From NCBI GenBank assembly GCA_003250475.1, contig QKGI01000064.1:1629-65628 (forward strand): a stretch of DNA of 64,000 nt, written 5' to 3'. The notes beneath the pieces were generated by a model that did not search any database, was not told where the DNA came from, and saw only the letters and a program-made list of their open reading frames with translations. The translations under genes and the position numbers were made by a program. This stretch comes from Bacteroidota bacterium (GTDB lineage: Bacteria; Bacteroidota; Bacteroidia; Bacteroidales; VadinHA17). How positions within the stretch are numbered: the stretch's first letter is position 1; each line of letters begins with the position of its first letter. Shown in pieces: positions 38,403 through 59,930 of the stretch.

Positions 38403-39872
38403 ATGAAAAAATTCCTAACCCTGTTTTCCGCACTGCTAGTTACCGGTTCCCTTCTTGCAGGCGGTCTGGTAACAAACACCAACCACAGCGCATACATGGT
38501 GCGCATGCTGAGCCGCCAGGCTTCAACCGGCGTGGATGCAGTATATTACAACCCTGCAGGACTGACAAGCCTGGCAGACGGATTTCATTTTTCACTTAAT
38601 AACCAGATCATCGGTCAGACAAAGACTATCACTAACAATTACTATTTCCTGACTGAGAAACCGACTGAATATATCGGTACTGTAAGCGCTCCTGTCTTTC
38701 CGGGTGTATATGCCGTTTACAAGACCGGCAAATTAGCCTTCTCTGCAGGTTTCAACCCGATCGGCGGTGGCGGCGGCGCTGAATATGCTACCGGCCTTCC
38801 CTCATTCGAAAAGCAGATTGCGAACCTGGTGCCCGGGCTGCAGACTCAGCTGGCTCCGCTTGACCAGGGCGTAATAGATGCAACTACTCTGGACCCCACC
38901 TTCAGAAACGTAACCGGTTATGACGGTACCATATTTTTCGAAGGAAGCTCAATCTACTTCGGCTACCAGGCTAATGTATCATATGAAATCAATGACTTCA
39001 TTTCCGTGGCGCTTGGAGGAAGGTATGTGACAGCAAAAAACACCTACCAGGGTTACGTAAATAATGTTACCATTACTGCTTCACCGGCAGCATTACCGGG
39101 GAGTGTTCCTGCTCCGTACAGCGGCTCACCCGGCAACTATCTGAGAGCTATAGCCCAGACACCTTACGGTGCCACACAGGCAACCAGCCTCAACGCTACA
39201 GCTGCAGCCCTTGATGTCATGACAAATATCGAGGCAGACGTTGTTGAGGAAGGAAGCGGATTCACTCCCATAGTAAGCGTCAATATCACTCCTGGTGGTG
39301 ATATGTTCAATATCTCGCTCAAATACGAGTTCAAGACTACCCTGGACCTGACCACTACTGTCATCGACGGCAAGGACGGAGGCGGGATGTTTGAGGATGG
39401 TGGAACCAAGGTAGCTGACATGCCCGCAGTTCTCTCTGCAGGTGTCGGCATACGTCCCATGGGAAAACTCTATATCGCAGCTGGTATGAATTATTACTTC
39501 GACAAGAATAACGATTATGACGGCAGCAGAGACCTCGAGGTCGCAATGATCGACAAGAATTTCTACGAATATTCAGTAGGCGTGGAATATGCACTTACCA
39601 AGATGATTAAGCTTAGTGCCGGTTACAGCGGTACACAGACAGGTGTAAACGACACCTATCAGAGTGACCTGAGATATAGTCTCAACACATCTACATTTGG
39701 CGGAGGTATCGGTCTTACCCTTTCACCTATGATCGACATCAACCTCGGTGGAATGTGGACAATGTACCAGGATGGAAGCAAGTCAACCCCGGTTACCGGT
39801 TTACCTGATACAATCGAAACCTATGACACCGAAACATGGGTGGTAGGTATCGGTGTGGATCTCCACTTCTAA
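38403..39872 (+). CDS. Outer-membrane beta-barrel protein, FadL/OmpP1/TodX-like
   Basis: Start taken at 'MKKFLTLFSALLVTGSLLAGG'. 'NTNHSAYMVRMLSRQASTGVDAVYYNPAGL' resembles the FadL-family N-terminus. C-terminal residue is F. Confidence 0.5.
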   Translation: MKKFLTLFSALLVTGSLLAGGLVTNTNHSAYMVRMLSRQASTGVDAVYYNPAGLTSLADGFHFSLNNQIIGQTKTITNNYYFLTEKPTEYIGTVSAPVFPGVYAVYKTGKLAFSAGFNPIGGGGGAEYATGLPSFEKQIANLVPGLQTQLAPLDQGVIDATTLDPTFRNVTGYDGTIFFEGSSIYFGYQANVSYEINDFISVALGGRYVTAKNTYQGYVNNVTITASPAALPGSVPAPYSGSPGNYLRAIAQTPYGATQATSLNATAAALDVMTNIEADVVEEGSGFTPIVSVNITPGGDMFNISLKYEFKTTLDLTTTVIDGKDGGGMFEDGGTKVADMPAVLSAGVGIRPMGKLYIAAGMNYYFDKNNDYDGSRDLEVAMIDKNFYEYSVGVEYALTKMIKLSAGYSGTQTGVNDTYQSDLRYSLNTSTFGGGIGLTLSPMIDINLGGMWTMYQDGSKSTPVTGLPDTIETYDTETWVVGIGVDLHF

Positions 39873-39893
39873 TACTAACCTATGATCTATTAA

Positions 39894-39927
39894 AGCCCCG
39901 CACTGAATACAGGCGGGGCTTTTTTTT
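39894..39927. terminator. Bidirectional intrinsic terminator between convergent genes
   Basis: 'AGCCCCGC actgaatacag GCGGGGCT TTTTTTT': 8-bp stem, T-run, and 'TTAAA' upstream. Confidence 0.7.
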
Positions 39928-40607
39928 CAGTAACTCACCCCCTCCCATCTCAGGGTTTCAAGATAGAGTCCCAGGTCAGGAGTGTCGGATGTCATCATCC
40001 TGTCATACCATGACCTGGCTTTCACCTCCCTGCCCCTCTTGTGATCAATAAGAATAAGGGAGGTGTAAACTGATCCTTCAATTCCCAGGTTAAGAGAATC
40101 CGTTTCATTGATGATCTCCTCAAAAATGCTGTAAGCAGCCAGATCCTGGCCCCTGTCCGACAGGCTATAAGCCTCATTAAGTTTACTGTTCAGAGCCGGA
40201 TCGGTAACAATCCCCCTGAAAGAGAGGCAGCCGCCAACACAATCCTCGATTATTGAAAACCACGTGGGCATCCCCGTGGGTGGGAATGTCAGTGAGAAAG
40301 CAGCTTTTTCCCCCGGGCGTTTGAACTTACGGGTTGACGGACAGTATGGCAATCCCTTTAAACCCTTCATCTTTATCCTTGTGCCGTCCGGCATGACCAG
40401 GTAAGTGTTCCTGTCGATGCAAAACCATGCATTGTTGATGTCACTCATTACAGTCATCGAGACAACAGTGGCGTCTCCGTTGAAATCCACCCTCACTATC
40501 TCGGCGGTGAGGGGTGACTTAATGCCGTAATTGGGACTTAGCACACTCTGTGCAGCCGCAGTATAACCTAATGCAGCTAGTATCAATATGATCGTTCCCT
40601 TTTTCAT
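39927..40607 (-). CDS. Secreted protein of unknown function
   Basis: 226 aa with signal peptide 'MKKGTIILILAALGYTAAAQS'. No family recognised. Its start codon lies inside the 31-bp inverted repeat. Confidence 0.5.
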   Translation of the reverse strand: MKKGTIILILAALGYTAAAQSVLSPNYGIKSPLTAEIVRVDFNGDATVVSMTVMSDINNAWFCIDRNTYLVMPDGTRIKMKGLKGLPYCPSTRKFKRPGEKAAFSLTFPPTGMPTWFSIIEDCVGGCLSFRGIVTDPALNSKLNEAYSLSDRGQDLAAYSIFEEIINETDSLNLGIEGSVYTSLILIDHKRGREVKARSWYDRMMTSDTPDLGLYLETLRWEGVSY

Positions 40608-40630
40608 TTTATCGTTATGATTGTTGGTTC
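40600..40630. repeat. Left arm of perfect 31-bp inverted repeat (partner 42121-42151)
   Basis: 'TTTTTCATTTTATCGTTATGATTGTTGGTTC' is the exact reverse complement of 42121-42151. Contains the ATG of gene 39927..40607. Confidence 0.9.
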
Positions 40631-40637
40631 TTTATAA

Positions 40638-40725
40638 GTCTGAAGGTCCGAAGGTCTGGTGTCTGAAGGTCTGAGGTCTGAAGGTCTGAAGTCTTGCGGT
40701 CCTGCAGTCTTGCAGTCTTGCAGAC
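40638..40725 (+). repeat. Mosaic GTC-unit array A
   Basis: Read directly: GTCTGAAG GTCCGAAG GTCTGGT GTCTGAAG GTCTGAG GTCTGAAG GTCTGAA GTCTTGCG GTCCTGCA GTCTTGCA GTCTTGCA GAC, followed by GCGAAGC at 40729-40735. Confidence 0.9.
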
Positions 40726-40919
40726 TTGGCGAAGCGTAGCGGGGATCTTCGACCGTAAGGTAGGGACAGTCTTCCTGTGCCGTTGTCTGCCACCTTTAAA
40801 AGGAGGTTTTTGACCCCTTTTACTATATTCCTCAATTATCATACCGTAAAGTTAGTGATTTAACTGAGAGCCTTTTCAGTCTTTGTACTCACTCCATAAA
40901 CAGATGCTAATACTATGTT

Positions 40920-40980
40920 TGTAACAACTTTGTAACATTTGTGTAATCCGAATGTAACAAAAGTGCAGGTATTTTGTAAT
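40920..40980 (+). promoter_or_regulatory. Phased TGTAA(C/T) direct repeats, candidate Pho-box array/promoter of the porin-pst cluster
   Basis: TGTAAC at 40920, 40931 and 40953; TGTAAT at 40942 and 40975. All are on an exact 11-bp register. The last ends 25 nt before the porin ATG (41005). Confidence 0.4.
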
Positions 40981-41004
40981 GTCAAACCATCAACTTCAAT
41001 TCTG

Positions 41005-42000
41005 ATGAAAATTAAGATCTTATCACTAATGTTCACCCTTCTTGTTCTGACAGCAGTTACAGCCTCAGCCCAGGATAGTGACGAATTCAAACCGGGAGGT
41101 AAAATGTACGGGCTGTTTTTCACCAACTTCCATACCACTTATGAAGGCGGGTCAAACAGTTCTGCTTTTGAAGTCACACGTTCATACCTTGGATTCGAAT
41201 ACAGGTTCTCCGAAGAGATATCTACGCGTATCCTGTATGACGGCACAACAAATGTCATTGACGGAAAAACTCTCTATTCGGGATATCTCCGTAATGCCTT
41301 TATCCAGTATAAAAAAGGCAGTTTCATTTTACAGGGCGGCCTCATAGGTATGGAGCAGGTCTCGGCGATGGAAAAGATATGGTCATACCGGTTCATATCA
41401 AAGCCTCCGATTGATTATTCAGGGATGGTACAGGTTGCCGACCTCGGTGTAAGTACAAAGTTCAACGCCGTGGAATGGCTCTCGGTTGATATCTCTGTCA
41501 CGCAGGGACGCGGGGTTAAGAACCTGGTTGCTGACGGCACCTATAAGCTGTCTGCAGGCTTTACCATGACTCCGGCCACCCACATGATCATAAGAGGCTT
41601 TTATGATATGATGGGATCATCAGGCAGCATGCAGCGAACAGCAAGCATCACTGCGGCATATACCGGACCCCGGCTTACTGCCGGCGCTGAATATTTCAGG
41701 CAGGACAACAACAAGATGACTGTGGGAAACGACTATTCGGGTGTCAGTTTCTTCACCAGTATCCCCCTCGCAGAAAAGGTGAACCTGTTTGCCAGGTATG
41801 ACCGCATAAGCTCTACCATACCTGAAGGAGAAACAGATCCGTGGAATATTACAAAAGACGGGTCATATCTTTTTGCAGGTATTGCCTTCTCGCCGGCACG
41901 AAATATAAGAATATCACCTAACTTTATTGGGTATATTCCATCAGACAGCGAATCGGATATGAGGAGTACAATAGGATTGAACGTGGAGGCAAGATTCTGA
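41005..42000 (+). CDS. Outer-membrane porin, probably phosphate-selective porin O/P-like
   Basis: Start at 'MKIKILSLMFTLLVLTAVTASAQ'. Alternating beta-strand pattern with C-terminal F. Immediately upstream of pstS. Confidence 0.5.
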   Translation: MKIKILSLMFTLLVLTAVTASAQDSDEFKPGGKMYGLFFTNFHTTYEGGSNSSAFEVTRSYLGFEYRFSEEISTRILYDGTTNVIDGKTLYSGYLRNAFIQYKKGSFILQGGLIGMEQVSAMEKIWSYRFISKPPIDYSGMVQVADLGVSTKFNAVEWLSVDISVTQGRGVKNLVADGTYKLSAGFTMTPATHMIIRGFYDMMGSSGSMQRTASITAAYTGPRLTAGAEYFRQDNNKMTVGNDYSGVSFFTSIPLAEKVNLFARYDRISSTIPEGETDPWNITKDGSYLFAGIAFSPARNIRISPNFIGYIPSDSESDMRSTIGLNVEARF

Positions 42001-42058
42001 CAGTTAAATACTTAACCCTGATCAGGCACTGACATAATGAAACAACCGGCCATAAAAA

Positions 42059-42116
42059 GACCTTCAGACCTTCAGACACCAGACCTTCAGACCTCAGACC
42101 TTCAGACCTTCAGACC
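42059..42116 (-). repeat. Mosaic GTC-unit array B (inverted relative to A)
   Basis: 'GAC CTTCAGAC CTTCAGAC ACCAGAC CTTCAGAC CTCAGAC CTTCAGAC CTTCAGAC C', the reverse complement of GTCTGAAG-type units. Confidence 0.9.
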
Positions 42117-42120
42117 AAAA

Positions 42121-42151
42121 GAACCAACAATCATAACGATAAAATGAAAAA
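42121..42151. repeat. Right arm of perfect 31-bp inverted repeat
   Basis: 'GAACCAACAATCATAACGATAAAATGAAAAA'. Contains an ATG (42144) that is out of frame with pstS. Confidence 0.9.
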
Positions 42152-42201
42152 TCAGAGCGGCCTCCTGCGGCAGCGGCCCGTCAACAGGCAAAGGAAGCAA
42201 A

Positions 42202-43173
42202 GTGACTCTCTCGGCTGCCGGGGCGACTTTCCCACAGCCGTTCTATAACCTAGCATTCAAGAAACACAGTGAGGCAGGTGGACCCCTTATCAACTACGGA
42301 GGAATAGGCTCCGGAGGGGGCATCAAGAGTCTGCGTGACCAGGTAGTTGACTTCGGCGCAACCGATGCCTACCTCTCCGATGCCGAGCTGGCGGAGATGC
42401 CGGGTGAGGTGGTACACATACCCACATGCATAGGCGCCGTGGTCATAGCCTACAACCTTCCCGGGGTGAACGGGCTGCAACTTACTCCTGCCCTCCTTGA
42501 AGGTATCTTTCTTGGCACTATAAAGACATGGAACGATCCGCAGATTACAGCCGTCAACCCGGATATCACGTTGCCGGCCATGGACATCACAGTTGTGTAC
42601 CGCTCTGACGGAAGCGGCACCACATACATCTTCAGTGACTATATGTCGAAGGTAAGCGCAGTCTGGAATGAAGAGATGGGCACCGGCAAAGCTCTTAACT
42701 GGCCGGCAGGTATCGGAGCCAAGGGTAACCCCGGCGTTGCAGGCACCATCAGCCAGAGCCAGGGGACGGTAGGCTATATCGGCTTTGAATATGCTTACGC
42801 GCAGAAAATCCCGATGGCCAGGGTGATGAACAGCTCGGGCTACTTTATCGAGCCTACGCTTGACTCATTCACTGCCGCGGCTGATGTCGACATGCCTGCT
42901 GACACGAGGGTGATGATAACCAACTCGCCAAACAGCGAGGCCTACCCTATCACCAGCTTCACATGGATCATCATGTACAGGGAGCAGTCGTACGGCAGGC
43001 ACTCCCGCGAAGCAGCCGAGGCAACAGTACAAACTGTCAAATGGCTTACCGGTCCCGACGCACAGGCCATAGCCACCAGCGTGCATTATGCCTCACTGCC
43101 TCAGAACGCCGTTGACCAGGCAGCCATATTGCTGAAGGGTATCACATTTGACGGAGAACCACTCCTGAAGTAA
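42202..43173 (+). CDS. pstS: Phosphate ABC transporter substrate-binding protein PstS, 5' end anomalous (no signal peptide encoded)
   Basis: 'SAAGATFPQPFY', 'GGIGSGGGI', 'YRSDGSGTTYIF' are PstS motifs. The listed start is a GTG. The same frame upstream reads '*KIRAASCGSGPSTGKGSK' (a lipobox relic) and is closed by a TGA at 42145. Confidence 0.8.
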   Translation: MTLSAAGATFPQPFYNLAFKKHSEAGGPLINYGGIGSGGGIKSLRDQVVDFGATDAYLSDAELAEMPGEVVHIPTCIGAVVIAYNLPGVNGLQLTPALLEGIFLGTIKTWNDPQITAVNPDITLPAMDITVVYRSDGSGTTYIFSDYMSKVSAVWNEEMGTGKALNWPAGIGAKGNPGVAGTISQSQGTVGYIGFEYAYAQKIPMARVMNSSGYFIEPTLDSFTAAADVDMPADTRVMITNSPNSEAYPITSFTWIIMYREQSYGRHSREAAEATVQTVKWLTGPDAQAIATSVHYASLPQNAVDQAAILLKGITFDGEPLLK

Positions 43174-46432: not shown

Positions 46433-46456
46433 CAACAGGGTATCAAACACCATAAC

Positions 46457-46564
46457 CTTGAGACTTCAGACCTTCAGACCTCAGACCTTCAGACCTTCAG
46501 ACCCCAAACCTTCAGACCTCAGACCTTGAGACCCCAGACAGAGCGAAGCGACAGACCTTCAGAC
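46457..46564 (-). repeat. Mosaic GTC-unit array C
   Basis: About 13 CTTCAGAC/CTCAGAC/CTTGAGAC/CCCAGAC units plus GCGAAGC at 46543-46549. Fills 108 of the 142 nt between phoU and the response regulator and ends 10 nt before its ATG. Confidence 0.9.
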
Positions 46565-49025: not shown

Positions 49026-49072
49026 GATAGCTCCCTCTTCCTGACGAAGATTAATCCTTCGCTCGCTACCCG

Positions 49073-49297
49073 ACCGCATGACTGCATGACTGCATGACTG
49101 CAAGACTTCAGACCTTCAGATTGAAGAGCGAAGCTCTGAAACCCCGCACACGAAGTGTCGGGGCCTTCAGACTTCAGACCTTCAGACGGAGCCCCGCACC
49201 GCGGGGCGACAGACTGCATGACTGCAAGACCGCATGACTGCAAGACTTCAGACCTTCAGACCTTCAGACTTCAGACCTTCAGACCTCAGACCCTGAC
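49073..49297 (-). repeat. Mosaic GTC-unit array D (largest, two sub-elements)
   Basis: CGCATGAC/TGCATGAC/TGCAAGAC and CTTCAGAC units. Hairpins at 49126-49136 (GAGC GAA GCTC), 49142-49163 and 49191-49207 (GCCCCGC acc GCGGGGC). Abuts the selD stop codon. Confidence 0.9.
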
Positions 49298-52579: not shown

Positions 52580-52736
52580 GTCTTGCAGTCTTGCAGTCTT
52601 GCGGTCGTGCGGTCGTGCGGTCGTGCGGTCTGTCGCCCCGCAGGGCGGGGCTCCGTCTGAGGTCGGAAGGTCTGAAGGTCTGAAGTCTGAAGGTCTGAGG
52701 TCGGAAGGTCTGAGGTCGGAAGGTCTGAGGTCGGAG
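52580..52736 (+). repeat. Mosaic GTC-unit array E
   Basis: GTCTTGCA x2, GTCTTGCG, GTCGTGCG x3, core GTCTGTCGCCCCGCaggGCGGGGCTCC (52628-52654), then GTCTGAGG/GTCGGAAG/GTCTGAAG units. Lies between convergent stop codons (17 nt and 4 nt gaps). Confidence 0.9.
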
Positions 52737-59771: not shown

Positions 59772-59930
59772 GTCTTGCGGTCTTGCGGTCTTGCAGTCTT
59801 GCAGTCTGTTTGCCAGCCCTGCAACCTGGCTCCTTCTCCGCCAGCCGGCGGATCGGCCCTGGTCTTGCGGTCTGTCGCCCCGCGGGGCGGGGCTCCGTCT
59901 GAGGTCTGAAGGTCTCAAGTCTGAAGGTCT
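59772..59930 (+). repeat. Mosaic GTC-unit array F (inside the nqr-apbE gene string)
   Basis: GTCTTGCG x2, GTCTTGCA x2, a 58-nt non-repeat insert (59804-59861), GTCTTGCG, core GTCTGTCGCCCCGCgggGCGGGGCTCC (59870-59896), then GTCTGAGG GTCTGAAG GTCTCAA GTCTGAAG. Confidence 0.9.

Follow-up and report, generated by a model that had tools for sequence, protein, structure and literature searches.

The stretch analysed here (the window) comprises 64,000 nucleotides of contig QKGI01000064.1 from the Bacteroidota bacterium assembly GCA_003250475.1, and within it a perfect inverted repeat brackets a porin gene and its control region at a phosphate transporter locus. Read from left to right, the genes of this locus encode a LacI-type regulator, a FadL-like outer-membrane protein and, on the minus strand, a secreted protein whose gene we call gene X; an intergenic region of ~400 bp separates gene X from the porin gene, which is followed by pstS, pstC, pstA, pstB, phoU, an OmpR-type response regulator and a histidine kinase (Table 1). 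The repeat had been put forward in a preliminary description of the window as the boundary of a candidate invertible cassette, and its origin is the subject of this analysis.

Table 1. Coordinates of the inverted repeat and of the genes and elements around it, numbered from the first nucleotide of the window
Feature	Position	Strand	Remarks
Gene X	39927..40607	-	Conserved 226-aa secreted protein; divergent neighbour of the Pho operon in most relatives
Left arm	40600..40633	-	Inverted copy of the pstS leader plus ATGAAAAA; gene X start codon (40607-40605) and proximal 5′ untranslated region (UTR)
Array A	40638..40691	-	~7 units CTTCAGAC (minus-strand reading); in gene X 5′ UTR; inverted partner of array B
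GTCTTGCR octamer array and rest of lineage-specific insertion	40690..40790 (array 40690-40728)	-	In gene X 5′ UTR
Putative gene X promoter, -7 element	40844..40854	-	TAACTTTAC on minus strand; from conservation
Pho-box-like array TGTAAC/TGTAAT	40920..40985	+	11-bp phase; upstream of porin gene, inside bracketed segment
Porin gene	41005..42000	+	Putative outer-membrane beta-barrel, 331 aa; first gene of the porin-pstSCAB-phoU unit
Array B	42058..42116	+	~7 units CTTCAGAC; porin-pstS intergenic region
Right arm	42118..42151	+	Native pstS translation-initiation region; authentic pstS ATG at 42144
pstS	42152..43173	+	Disrupted by 32-nt deletion; remaining open frame from GTG 42202; PBP_like_2 domain
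Octamer-family sites	40638-40728, 42058-42116, 46455-46564, 49072-49292, 52580-52735, 59772-59930		All within 40-60 kb of the window

The corresponding intergenic region of relatives is typically ~190 bp long and holds a GCAATTATCATACCGTAAAGTTA block, four phased Pho-box-like repeats and the porin promoter region. The block is conserved in nearly all relatives, and its reverse complement, TAACTTTAC/G, fits the Bacteroidetes -7 promoter consensus (TAnnTTTG), which makes it a putative promoter of gene X; it lies ~35-40 nt from the gene X ATG in distant relatives versus ~240 nt in the window. The TGTAAC/TGTAAT repeats start at 40920, 40931, 40942, 40953 and 40975, placing the phased array within the bracketed segment together with the porin gene as had been described, and this array is deeply conserved, with phased TGTAAC/TGTCAC boxes in relatives whose gene X is 62-88% identical. 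The E. coli Pho box consists of 7-bp repeats every 11 bp, and we take the TGTAAC repeats to resemble PhoB boxes and to be a candidate Pho-regulon operator. The control region as a whole (40834-41004), which includes the further blocks TTTTCAGTCTTTTTACTCAC and GATTTTTGTATTGTCAAACC, is highly conserved although the relatives' proteins are just 60-75% identical. RNA folding supported no structured element in the gene X 5′ UTR (z = -0.97) or the porin-pstS spacer (z = +0.44), an Rfam scan of 39800-42400 returned sub-threshold noise only, and a sigma-70 promoter and terminator scan, whose model is unsuited to Bacteroidetes, gave the same counts as shuffled sequences.

The inverted repeat is exact over 34 nt, with 40600-40633 being the reverse complement of 42118-42151 (AAAGAACCAACAATCATAACGATAAAATGAAAAA); the 31-bp perfect repeat of the preliminary description thus exists, but it is three bases longer on its inner side. 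When up to three mismatches are allowed the 34-mer is found in the 64-kb window as the two arms only, and in none of 100 shuffles. The octamer arrays inside the arms are themselves mutually inverted (40638-40691 versus 42062-42115, 54 nt at 91%), and when the two leaders are aligned globally, both in the direction of the outer gene that they precede, the total inverted homology comes to ~95-100 bp at ~90% identity, close to the ~100 bp estimated before, and ends at the inner ends of the arrays. Both arms hold a start codon, as had been noticed: the 226-aa minus-strand open reading frame (ORF) begins inside the left arm, which covers its initial 8 nt (ATGAAAAA) with the gene X ATG, and the right arm contains the ATG at 42144. 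The geometry in which the arms bracket both the promoter region and the porin gene was likewise confirmed.

To trace the origin of the two arms we turned to ~100 loci with gene X relatives at 58-88% identity, all of them from uncultured Bacteroidales metagenome-assembled genomes or metagenomes, in most of which gene X and porin-pstS are divergent. Where both starts were present (~60 loci) the leaders of gene X and pstS were compared over 120-150 nt upstream plus 12 nt of coding sequence (CDS). More than 11 consecutive bases are common to both leaders in three loci only, namely the window (34 nt) and L005 and L006 (37 nt each), which come from two independent Joint Genome Institute (JGI) assemblies of a sister species with ~91% nucleotide identity across the locus. 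The repeat-bearing arrangement is therefore restricted to one lineage, and in L005 and L006 it takes the form of an exact inverted repeat of 37 nt with arrays adjoining.

The two arms differ in their distribution. On the pstS side, 30-34 nt of the arm precede pstS in L002-L006 and in two near-identical strains (L109 and L110), and in all of these close relatives they supply the ATG of a PstS of 353 aa that carries a lipoprotein signal peptide. This includes L002-L004, which belong to the same species as L005 and L006 and lack the left arm; their gene X has its own leader (…CAAATGGTAAAGAAATGAAACAGGG), like that of distant relatives (…GGCAAATGGAATGAAACAGG). On the gene X side the 30-mer core of the arm is found among relatives in L005 and L006 only. 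The comparison of orthologous loci that had been suggested as a check thus identifies the right arm as the native pstS leader and the left arm as a sequence confined to the window, L005 and L006. We also considered that the repeat-free allele of L002 might have arisen by deletion and rejected this, since L002 retains proximal leader motifs of the ancestral type (CAAATGG...ATGAAACAGG) and is therefore not a deletion derivative.

The start of gene X records the same event. Nearly all relatives begin gene X with ATGAAACA, and the ancestral start is ATGAAACAG; in the window and L005 it reads ATGAAAAAG (with ATGAAAAA), and the pstS start reads ATGAAAAATCAG. Nucleotide 7 of the gene X CDS has changed from C to A in the derived copy, and since the start is pstS-like at this position the junction falls between CDS nucleotides 7 and 9. 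The left arm has accordingly displaced the resident proximal leader and the first 7-8 coding bases of gene X. From these alignments the direction of copying reads clearly as pstS to gene X, with the right arm as donor and the left arm as the derived copy. One copy is ancestral and the other arose by replacement, as befits an inverted duplication, and the replaced tract is bounded by homology on both sides, its inner edge lying in the inverted arrays and its outer edge at the ATGAAA common to both genes. An inner boundary within arrays, an outer boundary at microhomology, and replacement rather than addition of sequence together form the signature of a template switch or gene conversion.

One further locus of the sister species, L004, combines both alleles in a mosaic, matching the L002 type exactly in gene X and the left intergenic region and being of the L005 type in the porin-pstS spacer, pstS and the far flank. 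Repeat-bearing and repeat-free alleles are therefore shuffled by homologous recombination among co-occurring strains.

The arrays that adjoin the arms belong to a larger set. A GTCTGAAGGTCTGAAG 16-mer probe with up to two mismatches has 23 matches in the window versus 0.05 expected, at six intergenic sites that include gaps between convergent genes, and the same unit recurring at many sites marks the GTCTGAAG-type octamers as a dispersed intergenic family of short tandem repeats. Family sites commonly have the composite form (TGCAAGAC)n(CTTCAGAC)n and are accompanied by GC-rich hairpins such as GGAGCCCCGC...GCGGGGCGAC. To our knowledge this octamer family has not been described in print, in Bacteroidales or elsewhere, though we did not search the literature for a description of it. 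None of the four other arrays carries the 34-mer, and we rejected on this ground the notion, entertained in the preliminary description as a possible refutation, that the repeat is a common terminal module of the family.

Arrays of differing length occupy the position of array B in L002-L006. In the window array A carries the (TGCAAGAC)n half of the composite and array B does not; the region upstream of pstS in L002 keeps a short form of it. The insertion at 40690-40790 has no counterpart on the pstS side of the window, is homologous to the gene X leader of L005 and is missing from the ~190-bp ancestral intergenic region. In a unit-by-unit comparison the variant ACCAGAC proved private to arrays A and B, occurring in none of the other four arrays nor in the arrays of L005, which points to continuing sequence exchange between both copies, after the species split. 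Short tandem repeats were also seen just upstream of pstS in distant relatives (L010, L011, L014, L015, L030, L032, L045, L052 and L055; 60 nt upstream examined), where the units are different: AGAATTA, ACAATGA/ACGATAA, GACTTTA(CA), CAGATAA and GCATGAC. A repeat array upstream of pstS seems to be a recurring feature regardless of its unit sequence.

We think it probable that the repeat was left behind when a translation-initiation region was duplicated in inverted form within this lineage, and that it is not a dedicated switch. In this model gene X and porin-pstSCAB-phoU would ancestrally have diverged from a control region of ~190 bp holding the gene X promoter and the Pho-box promoter. Composite arrays ((TGCAAGAC)n(CTTCAGAC)n) would then have become established upstream of pstS and, in the opposite orientation, within the gene X 5′ UTR, where they probably supplied the homology for a template switch or gene conversion. 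An event primed in the inverted arrays would have copied the pstS leader through ATGAAAA onto gene X and been resolved at the 6-7 nt of ATGAAA microhomology common to both start regions. As an outcome the two genes now share a like array, predicted to be unstructured, the 26-nt A-rich proximal leader and the start ATG AAA AA. The gene X transcript is predicted to start near 40840, with a 5′ UTR of ~230 nt ending in a (CUUCAGAC)n array and the pstS-type leader, and the ~100 bp of inverted homology would be a by-product that still exchanges sequence now and then. Gene X is thus most likely translated from a pstS-type initiation region, and co-tuning with pstS is plausible in view of its deeply conserved association with the Pho locus.

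Several points weigh against this account. The template-switch mechanism is drawn from the anatomy of the junctions only, and array A may have been either copied from array B or inserted independently by the octamer family. The arms are also more alike than their surroundings: the two species have four copies of the 34-36-mer without a single difference, against an identity of ~91-92% in the adjoining non-array gene X leader and of 88-93% in the flanking genes, so that the neutral chance of 34-36 nt remaining unchanged is ~0.03-0.04 per pair. Arm identity at ~9% flanking divergence calls for constraint or homogenisation and suggests one of these (constraint being expected of a translation-initiation region), yet a functional recombination site predicts the same, and neither this identity nor the ACCAGAC exchange separates a passive duplicate from a recombination site. 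Finally, the orientation of the segment is known from assemblies, which report the majority state only and are compatible with a minority of flipped molecules.

If the copied leader is more than a passive duplicate, the array and leader may together form a selected cis-regulatory module that was recruited to gene X and couples its translation to that of pstS, the inverted geometry being incidental; such a module might be recognised by a single RNA-binding protein or small RNA, or favour the loading of ribosomes. We consider this rather unlikely, and it is a functional extension of inverted duplication and not an alternative origin of the repeat. It would suit the deep conservation of gene X as a neighbour of the Pho operon with which it shares the Pho-box control region, the perfect conservation of the arms across two species and the predicted lack of structure in the leader region. 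It would also suit the orientation of the arrays, as the transcript reads CUUCAGAC at all four sites where orientation is unambiguous, including those upstream of pstS, phoB and gene X, but four out of four is weak statistics. No Rfam match and no significant fold z-score speaks for such a module, and the co-occurring L002-L004 strains, like most relatives and all of the distant ones, manage without the copied leader, which is therefore clearly dispensable.

The arrangement also invites the reading that it was first given, in which the 1.5-kb segment inverts. Such an inversion could be catalysed by an unlinked site-specific invertase or proceed through RecA on the ~100 bp of homology, and the geometry suits it: a pair of inverted repeats flanks the segment, as in invertons, with a perfect 34 nt extended to ~100 bp at ~90% identity and both promoters inside. 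The preliminary description had supposed that inversion would re-point a promoter-porin unit from pstSCAB-phoU to gene X. The Pho promoter does lie inside the segment, but so does the -7 box of gene X (both are promoter-like from conservation only), and inversion would consequently swap promoters between the outer genes instead of re-pointing one. The Pho-box promoter and the porin gene would be read into gene X and the gene X promoter into pstSCAB-phoU, with identical leaders and start codons keeping both outer genes translatable either way. The perfect conservation of the arms in two species ~9% apart would then reflect selection for recombination competence, and the variant private to arrays A and B indicates that recombination between the copies does occur. 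Bacteroidales genomes are moreover rich in invertons, and the PhaVa catalogue includes 'partial intergenic' invertons that overlap genes (PMC10028968).

The evidence from assemblies and relatives points the other way. The window, L005 and L006, the three assemblies to cross the repeat, agree in orientation and run through it unbroken; among the ~100 related loci none has a flipped porin gene, which invariably shares the strand of pstS. The 51 non-overlapping ORFs of the window include no Phage_integrase, Resolvase or transposase domain, which bears out the earlier statement that the window holds no recombinase gene. Nor does the arm behave as a recombinase motif common to other invertible loci, since in related loci it is the pre-existing pstS leader or its gene X copy in L005 and L006, and it is found nowhere else. 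Searches for the 34-mer in a genome-contig collection and for its 24-mer core in a metagenome-contig collection gave no matches, both collections being without the source genome and its closest relatives. Logan contigs, which we take to be assembled with k = 31, cannot settle the orientation because the exact repeat of 34 nt exceeds k-1 (30). A regulatory gain from inversion is doubtful as well, because both promoters flank the same Pho boxes. With a single orientation observed and the arms accounted for as a native pstS leader and its copy, programmed inversion is unsupported, although RecA may invert the segment on rare occasions; we regard inversion at a biologically meaningful rate as distinctly improbable, and hold the same doubt about a promoter-swap switch worked by RecA or an unlinked invertase.

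That the repeat is an artefact of assembly (a mis-join, or a repeat collapsed or duplicated at the octamer arrays) is hardly credible, given its presence in identical gene context in the two sister-species JGI assemblies, the pstS-type base in the third codon of gene X in both lineages, and Logan contigs that begin exactly where a true two-context repeat predicts. When the final k-1 bases of a repeat can be continued in two ways, a de Bruijn graph opens a new contig with them; here the 30-mer is followed by T on the pstS side and by G on the gene X side. Two Logan contigs of the window's own species, L109 (run SRR36066756) and L110 (run SRR7216773), have full-length identities to the window of 98.2% and 98.3%, the figure for L110 rising to ~99.8% if a 32-nt gap is left out of account. 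The first base of each corresponds exactly to 42122 in the window, which leaves 30 nt (k-1) of the right arm up to its outer end. Short-read graphs do break around repeats, as may be seen from these starts within the arm and from a third Logan contig (L001, 99.7% identical to the window) that covers 40665-42099 and ends within both arrays, and the window alone has an odd 32-nt deletion 4 nt past the right arm. The presence of the repeat in two JGI assemblies and the contig starts k-1 inside its edge nevertheless make a mis-join very unlikely; we rejected it, and with it the second refutation that the preliminary description had allowed for, and the existence of the repeat is independently confirmed.

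The deletion just mentioned lies in pstS. The window lacks 32 nt (ATCATCATTCTATTAGCAATCGTTGCACTGGC) directly after ATGAAAAATCAG, with the deletion point between 42155 and 42156. The frame is thereby shifted, and the lipoprotein signal peptide is left without its hydrophobic core. Only 4 nt separate the repeat from the start of this deletion. An intact 353-aa pstS is present in the near-identical strains L109 and L110 and in all relatives; the ATG at 42144 that had been noted in front of pstS is accordingly the authentic start in relatives, but it is out of frame with pstS in the window because of the deletion. This could be a real null mutation or a consensus error; if it is a real null, the Pho regulon is probably constitutive. 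Other structural variants were seen in relatives, where the locus is rearrangement-prone: in L111 the porin gene is deleted to its first ~33 codons and fused to the pstS leader, L022, L024 and L073 have no porin gene, and L112 and L113 are without the entire porin-pstSCAB-phoU block, with 126 nt between gene X and phoB.

The proteins encoded on either side of the control region have no assigned family, in that neither gene X nor the porin has a Pfam or NCBIfam match. The porin has a signal peptide and a C-terminal Phe, and its position and strand are conserved in relatives. Gene X has 172 homologues, all from uncultured Bacteroidales, and four cysteines (C63, C89, C123 and C127) are invariant among homologues P0001-P0120. 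An AlphaFold2 model (pLDDT 83.7) predicts an N-terminal beta-sandwich followed by a C-terminal helical-repeat domain; a Foldseek search of the PDB with this model gave no significant match, the C-terminal helices having merely a tetratricopeptide-repeat-like resemblance. Exact-protein look-ups for gene X, the pstS remnant and the FadL-like neighbour returned nothing on record. Gene X nearly always adjoins the Pho operon (in L112 it adjoins phoBR alone), and we regard it as a candidate for addition to the phosphate-starvation regulon. Between gene X and the convergent FadL-like gene, positions 39895-39927 form a GC-rich hairpin with a T-run (GCCCCGCACTGAATACAGGCGGGGCTTTTTTTT), which is likely a bidirectional terminator and has sub-threshold small-RNA matches only in Rfam.

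These results have consequences beyond the locus. They suggest that a dispersed family of short tandem repeats can seed a local rearrangement that moves a whole translation-initiation region, start codon included, to a divergent neighbour. They also call for caution in predicting invertons from sequence only, since promoters enclosed by a perfect repeat, in a genome of the Bacteroidales, give the appearance of a phase-variation switch, and comparative data here explain the switch-like repeat as a one-off duplication. Were inversion true after all, the locus would be a switch of an uncommon sort, in which a phosphate transporter operon and the gene of an uncharacterised secreted protein trade promoters. 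Independently of either outcome, gene X emerges as a widespread uncharacterised secreted protein that is firmly tied to the Pho locus in these bacteria.

Among known systems the invertible promoters offer one likeness, as represented by E. coli fimS, Salmonella hin and the Bacteroides fragilis capsule promoters flipped by Mpi. As in invertons, inverted repeats here flank a promoter-bearing segment between outward-facing genes in a Bacteroidales genome, and the arms extend into coding sequence, a trait of partial intergenic invertons. In contrast to these, no recombinase is nearby, the arms are a pre-existing pstS leader and not a recurrent recognition motif, and the segment is 1.5 kb long with a whole gene and two promoters; a single orientation appears in every assembly, and the repeat is missing from most relatives with the same locus. 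The arrays, in turn, resemble the heptamer arrays of cyanobacterial short tandemly repeated repetitive (STRR) sequences and the enterobacterial repetitive extragenic palindromic (REP) sequences and bacterial interspersed mosaic elements (BIMEs), in that units of 7-8 nt are arrayed at many intergenic sites in either orientation, often beside GC-rich hairpins and with strain-variable copy number. Unlike those elements, the units CTTCAGAC and TGCAAGAC and their composite architecture are specific to this Bacteroidales lineage, and the arrays serve as the substrate for the inverted repeat, not as the repeat itself.

The control region likewise has an enterobacterial counterpart in the PhoB boxes upstream of pstS and phoE, where 11-bp-phased repeats also precede an outer-membrane protein gene; here TGTAAC/TGTCAC repeats are followed by an outer-membrane protein gene and then by pstSCAB-phoU and phoBR. 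The core hexamer of this predicted PhoB site differs slightly from the CTGTCAT of the E. coli Pho box, and in contrast to the enterobacterial regions the control region is shared with the divergent, uncharacterised gene X. For the repeat as such, a parallel is quasipalindrome-type template switching, reportedly described by Ripley and by Lovett, together with intrachromosomal inverted-repeat conversion: a short tract is copied inverted from a nearby site, its edges coincide with inverted homology (the arrays) and microhomology (ATGAAA), and the resident sequence is replaced. Donor and recipient are ~1.5 kb apart here, farther than in classical quasipalindrome corrections, and the tract would carry a functional unit consisting of a leader and a start codon, the mechanism being one that we infer. 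The feature is best classed as an inverted duplication seeded by an octamer-repeat family, a further case of an event whose kind is already known.

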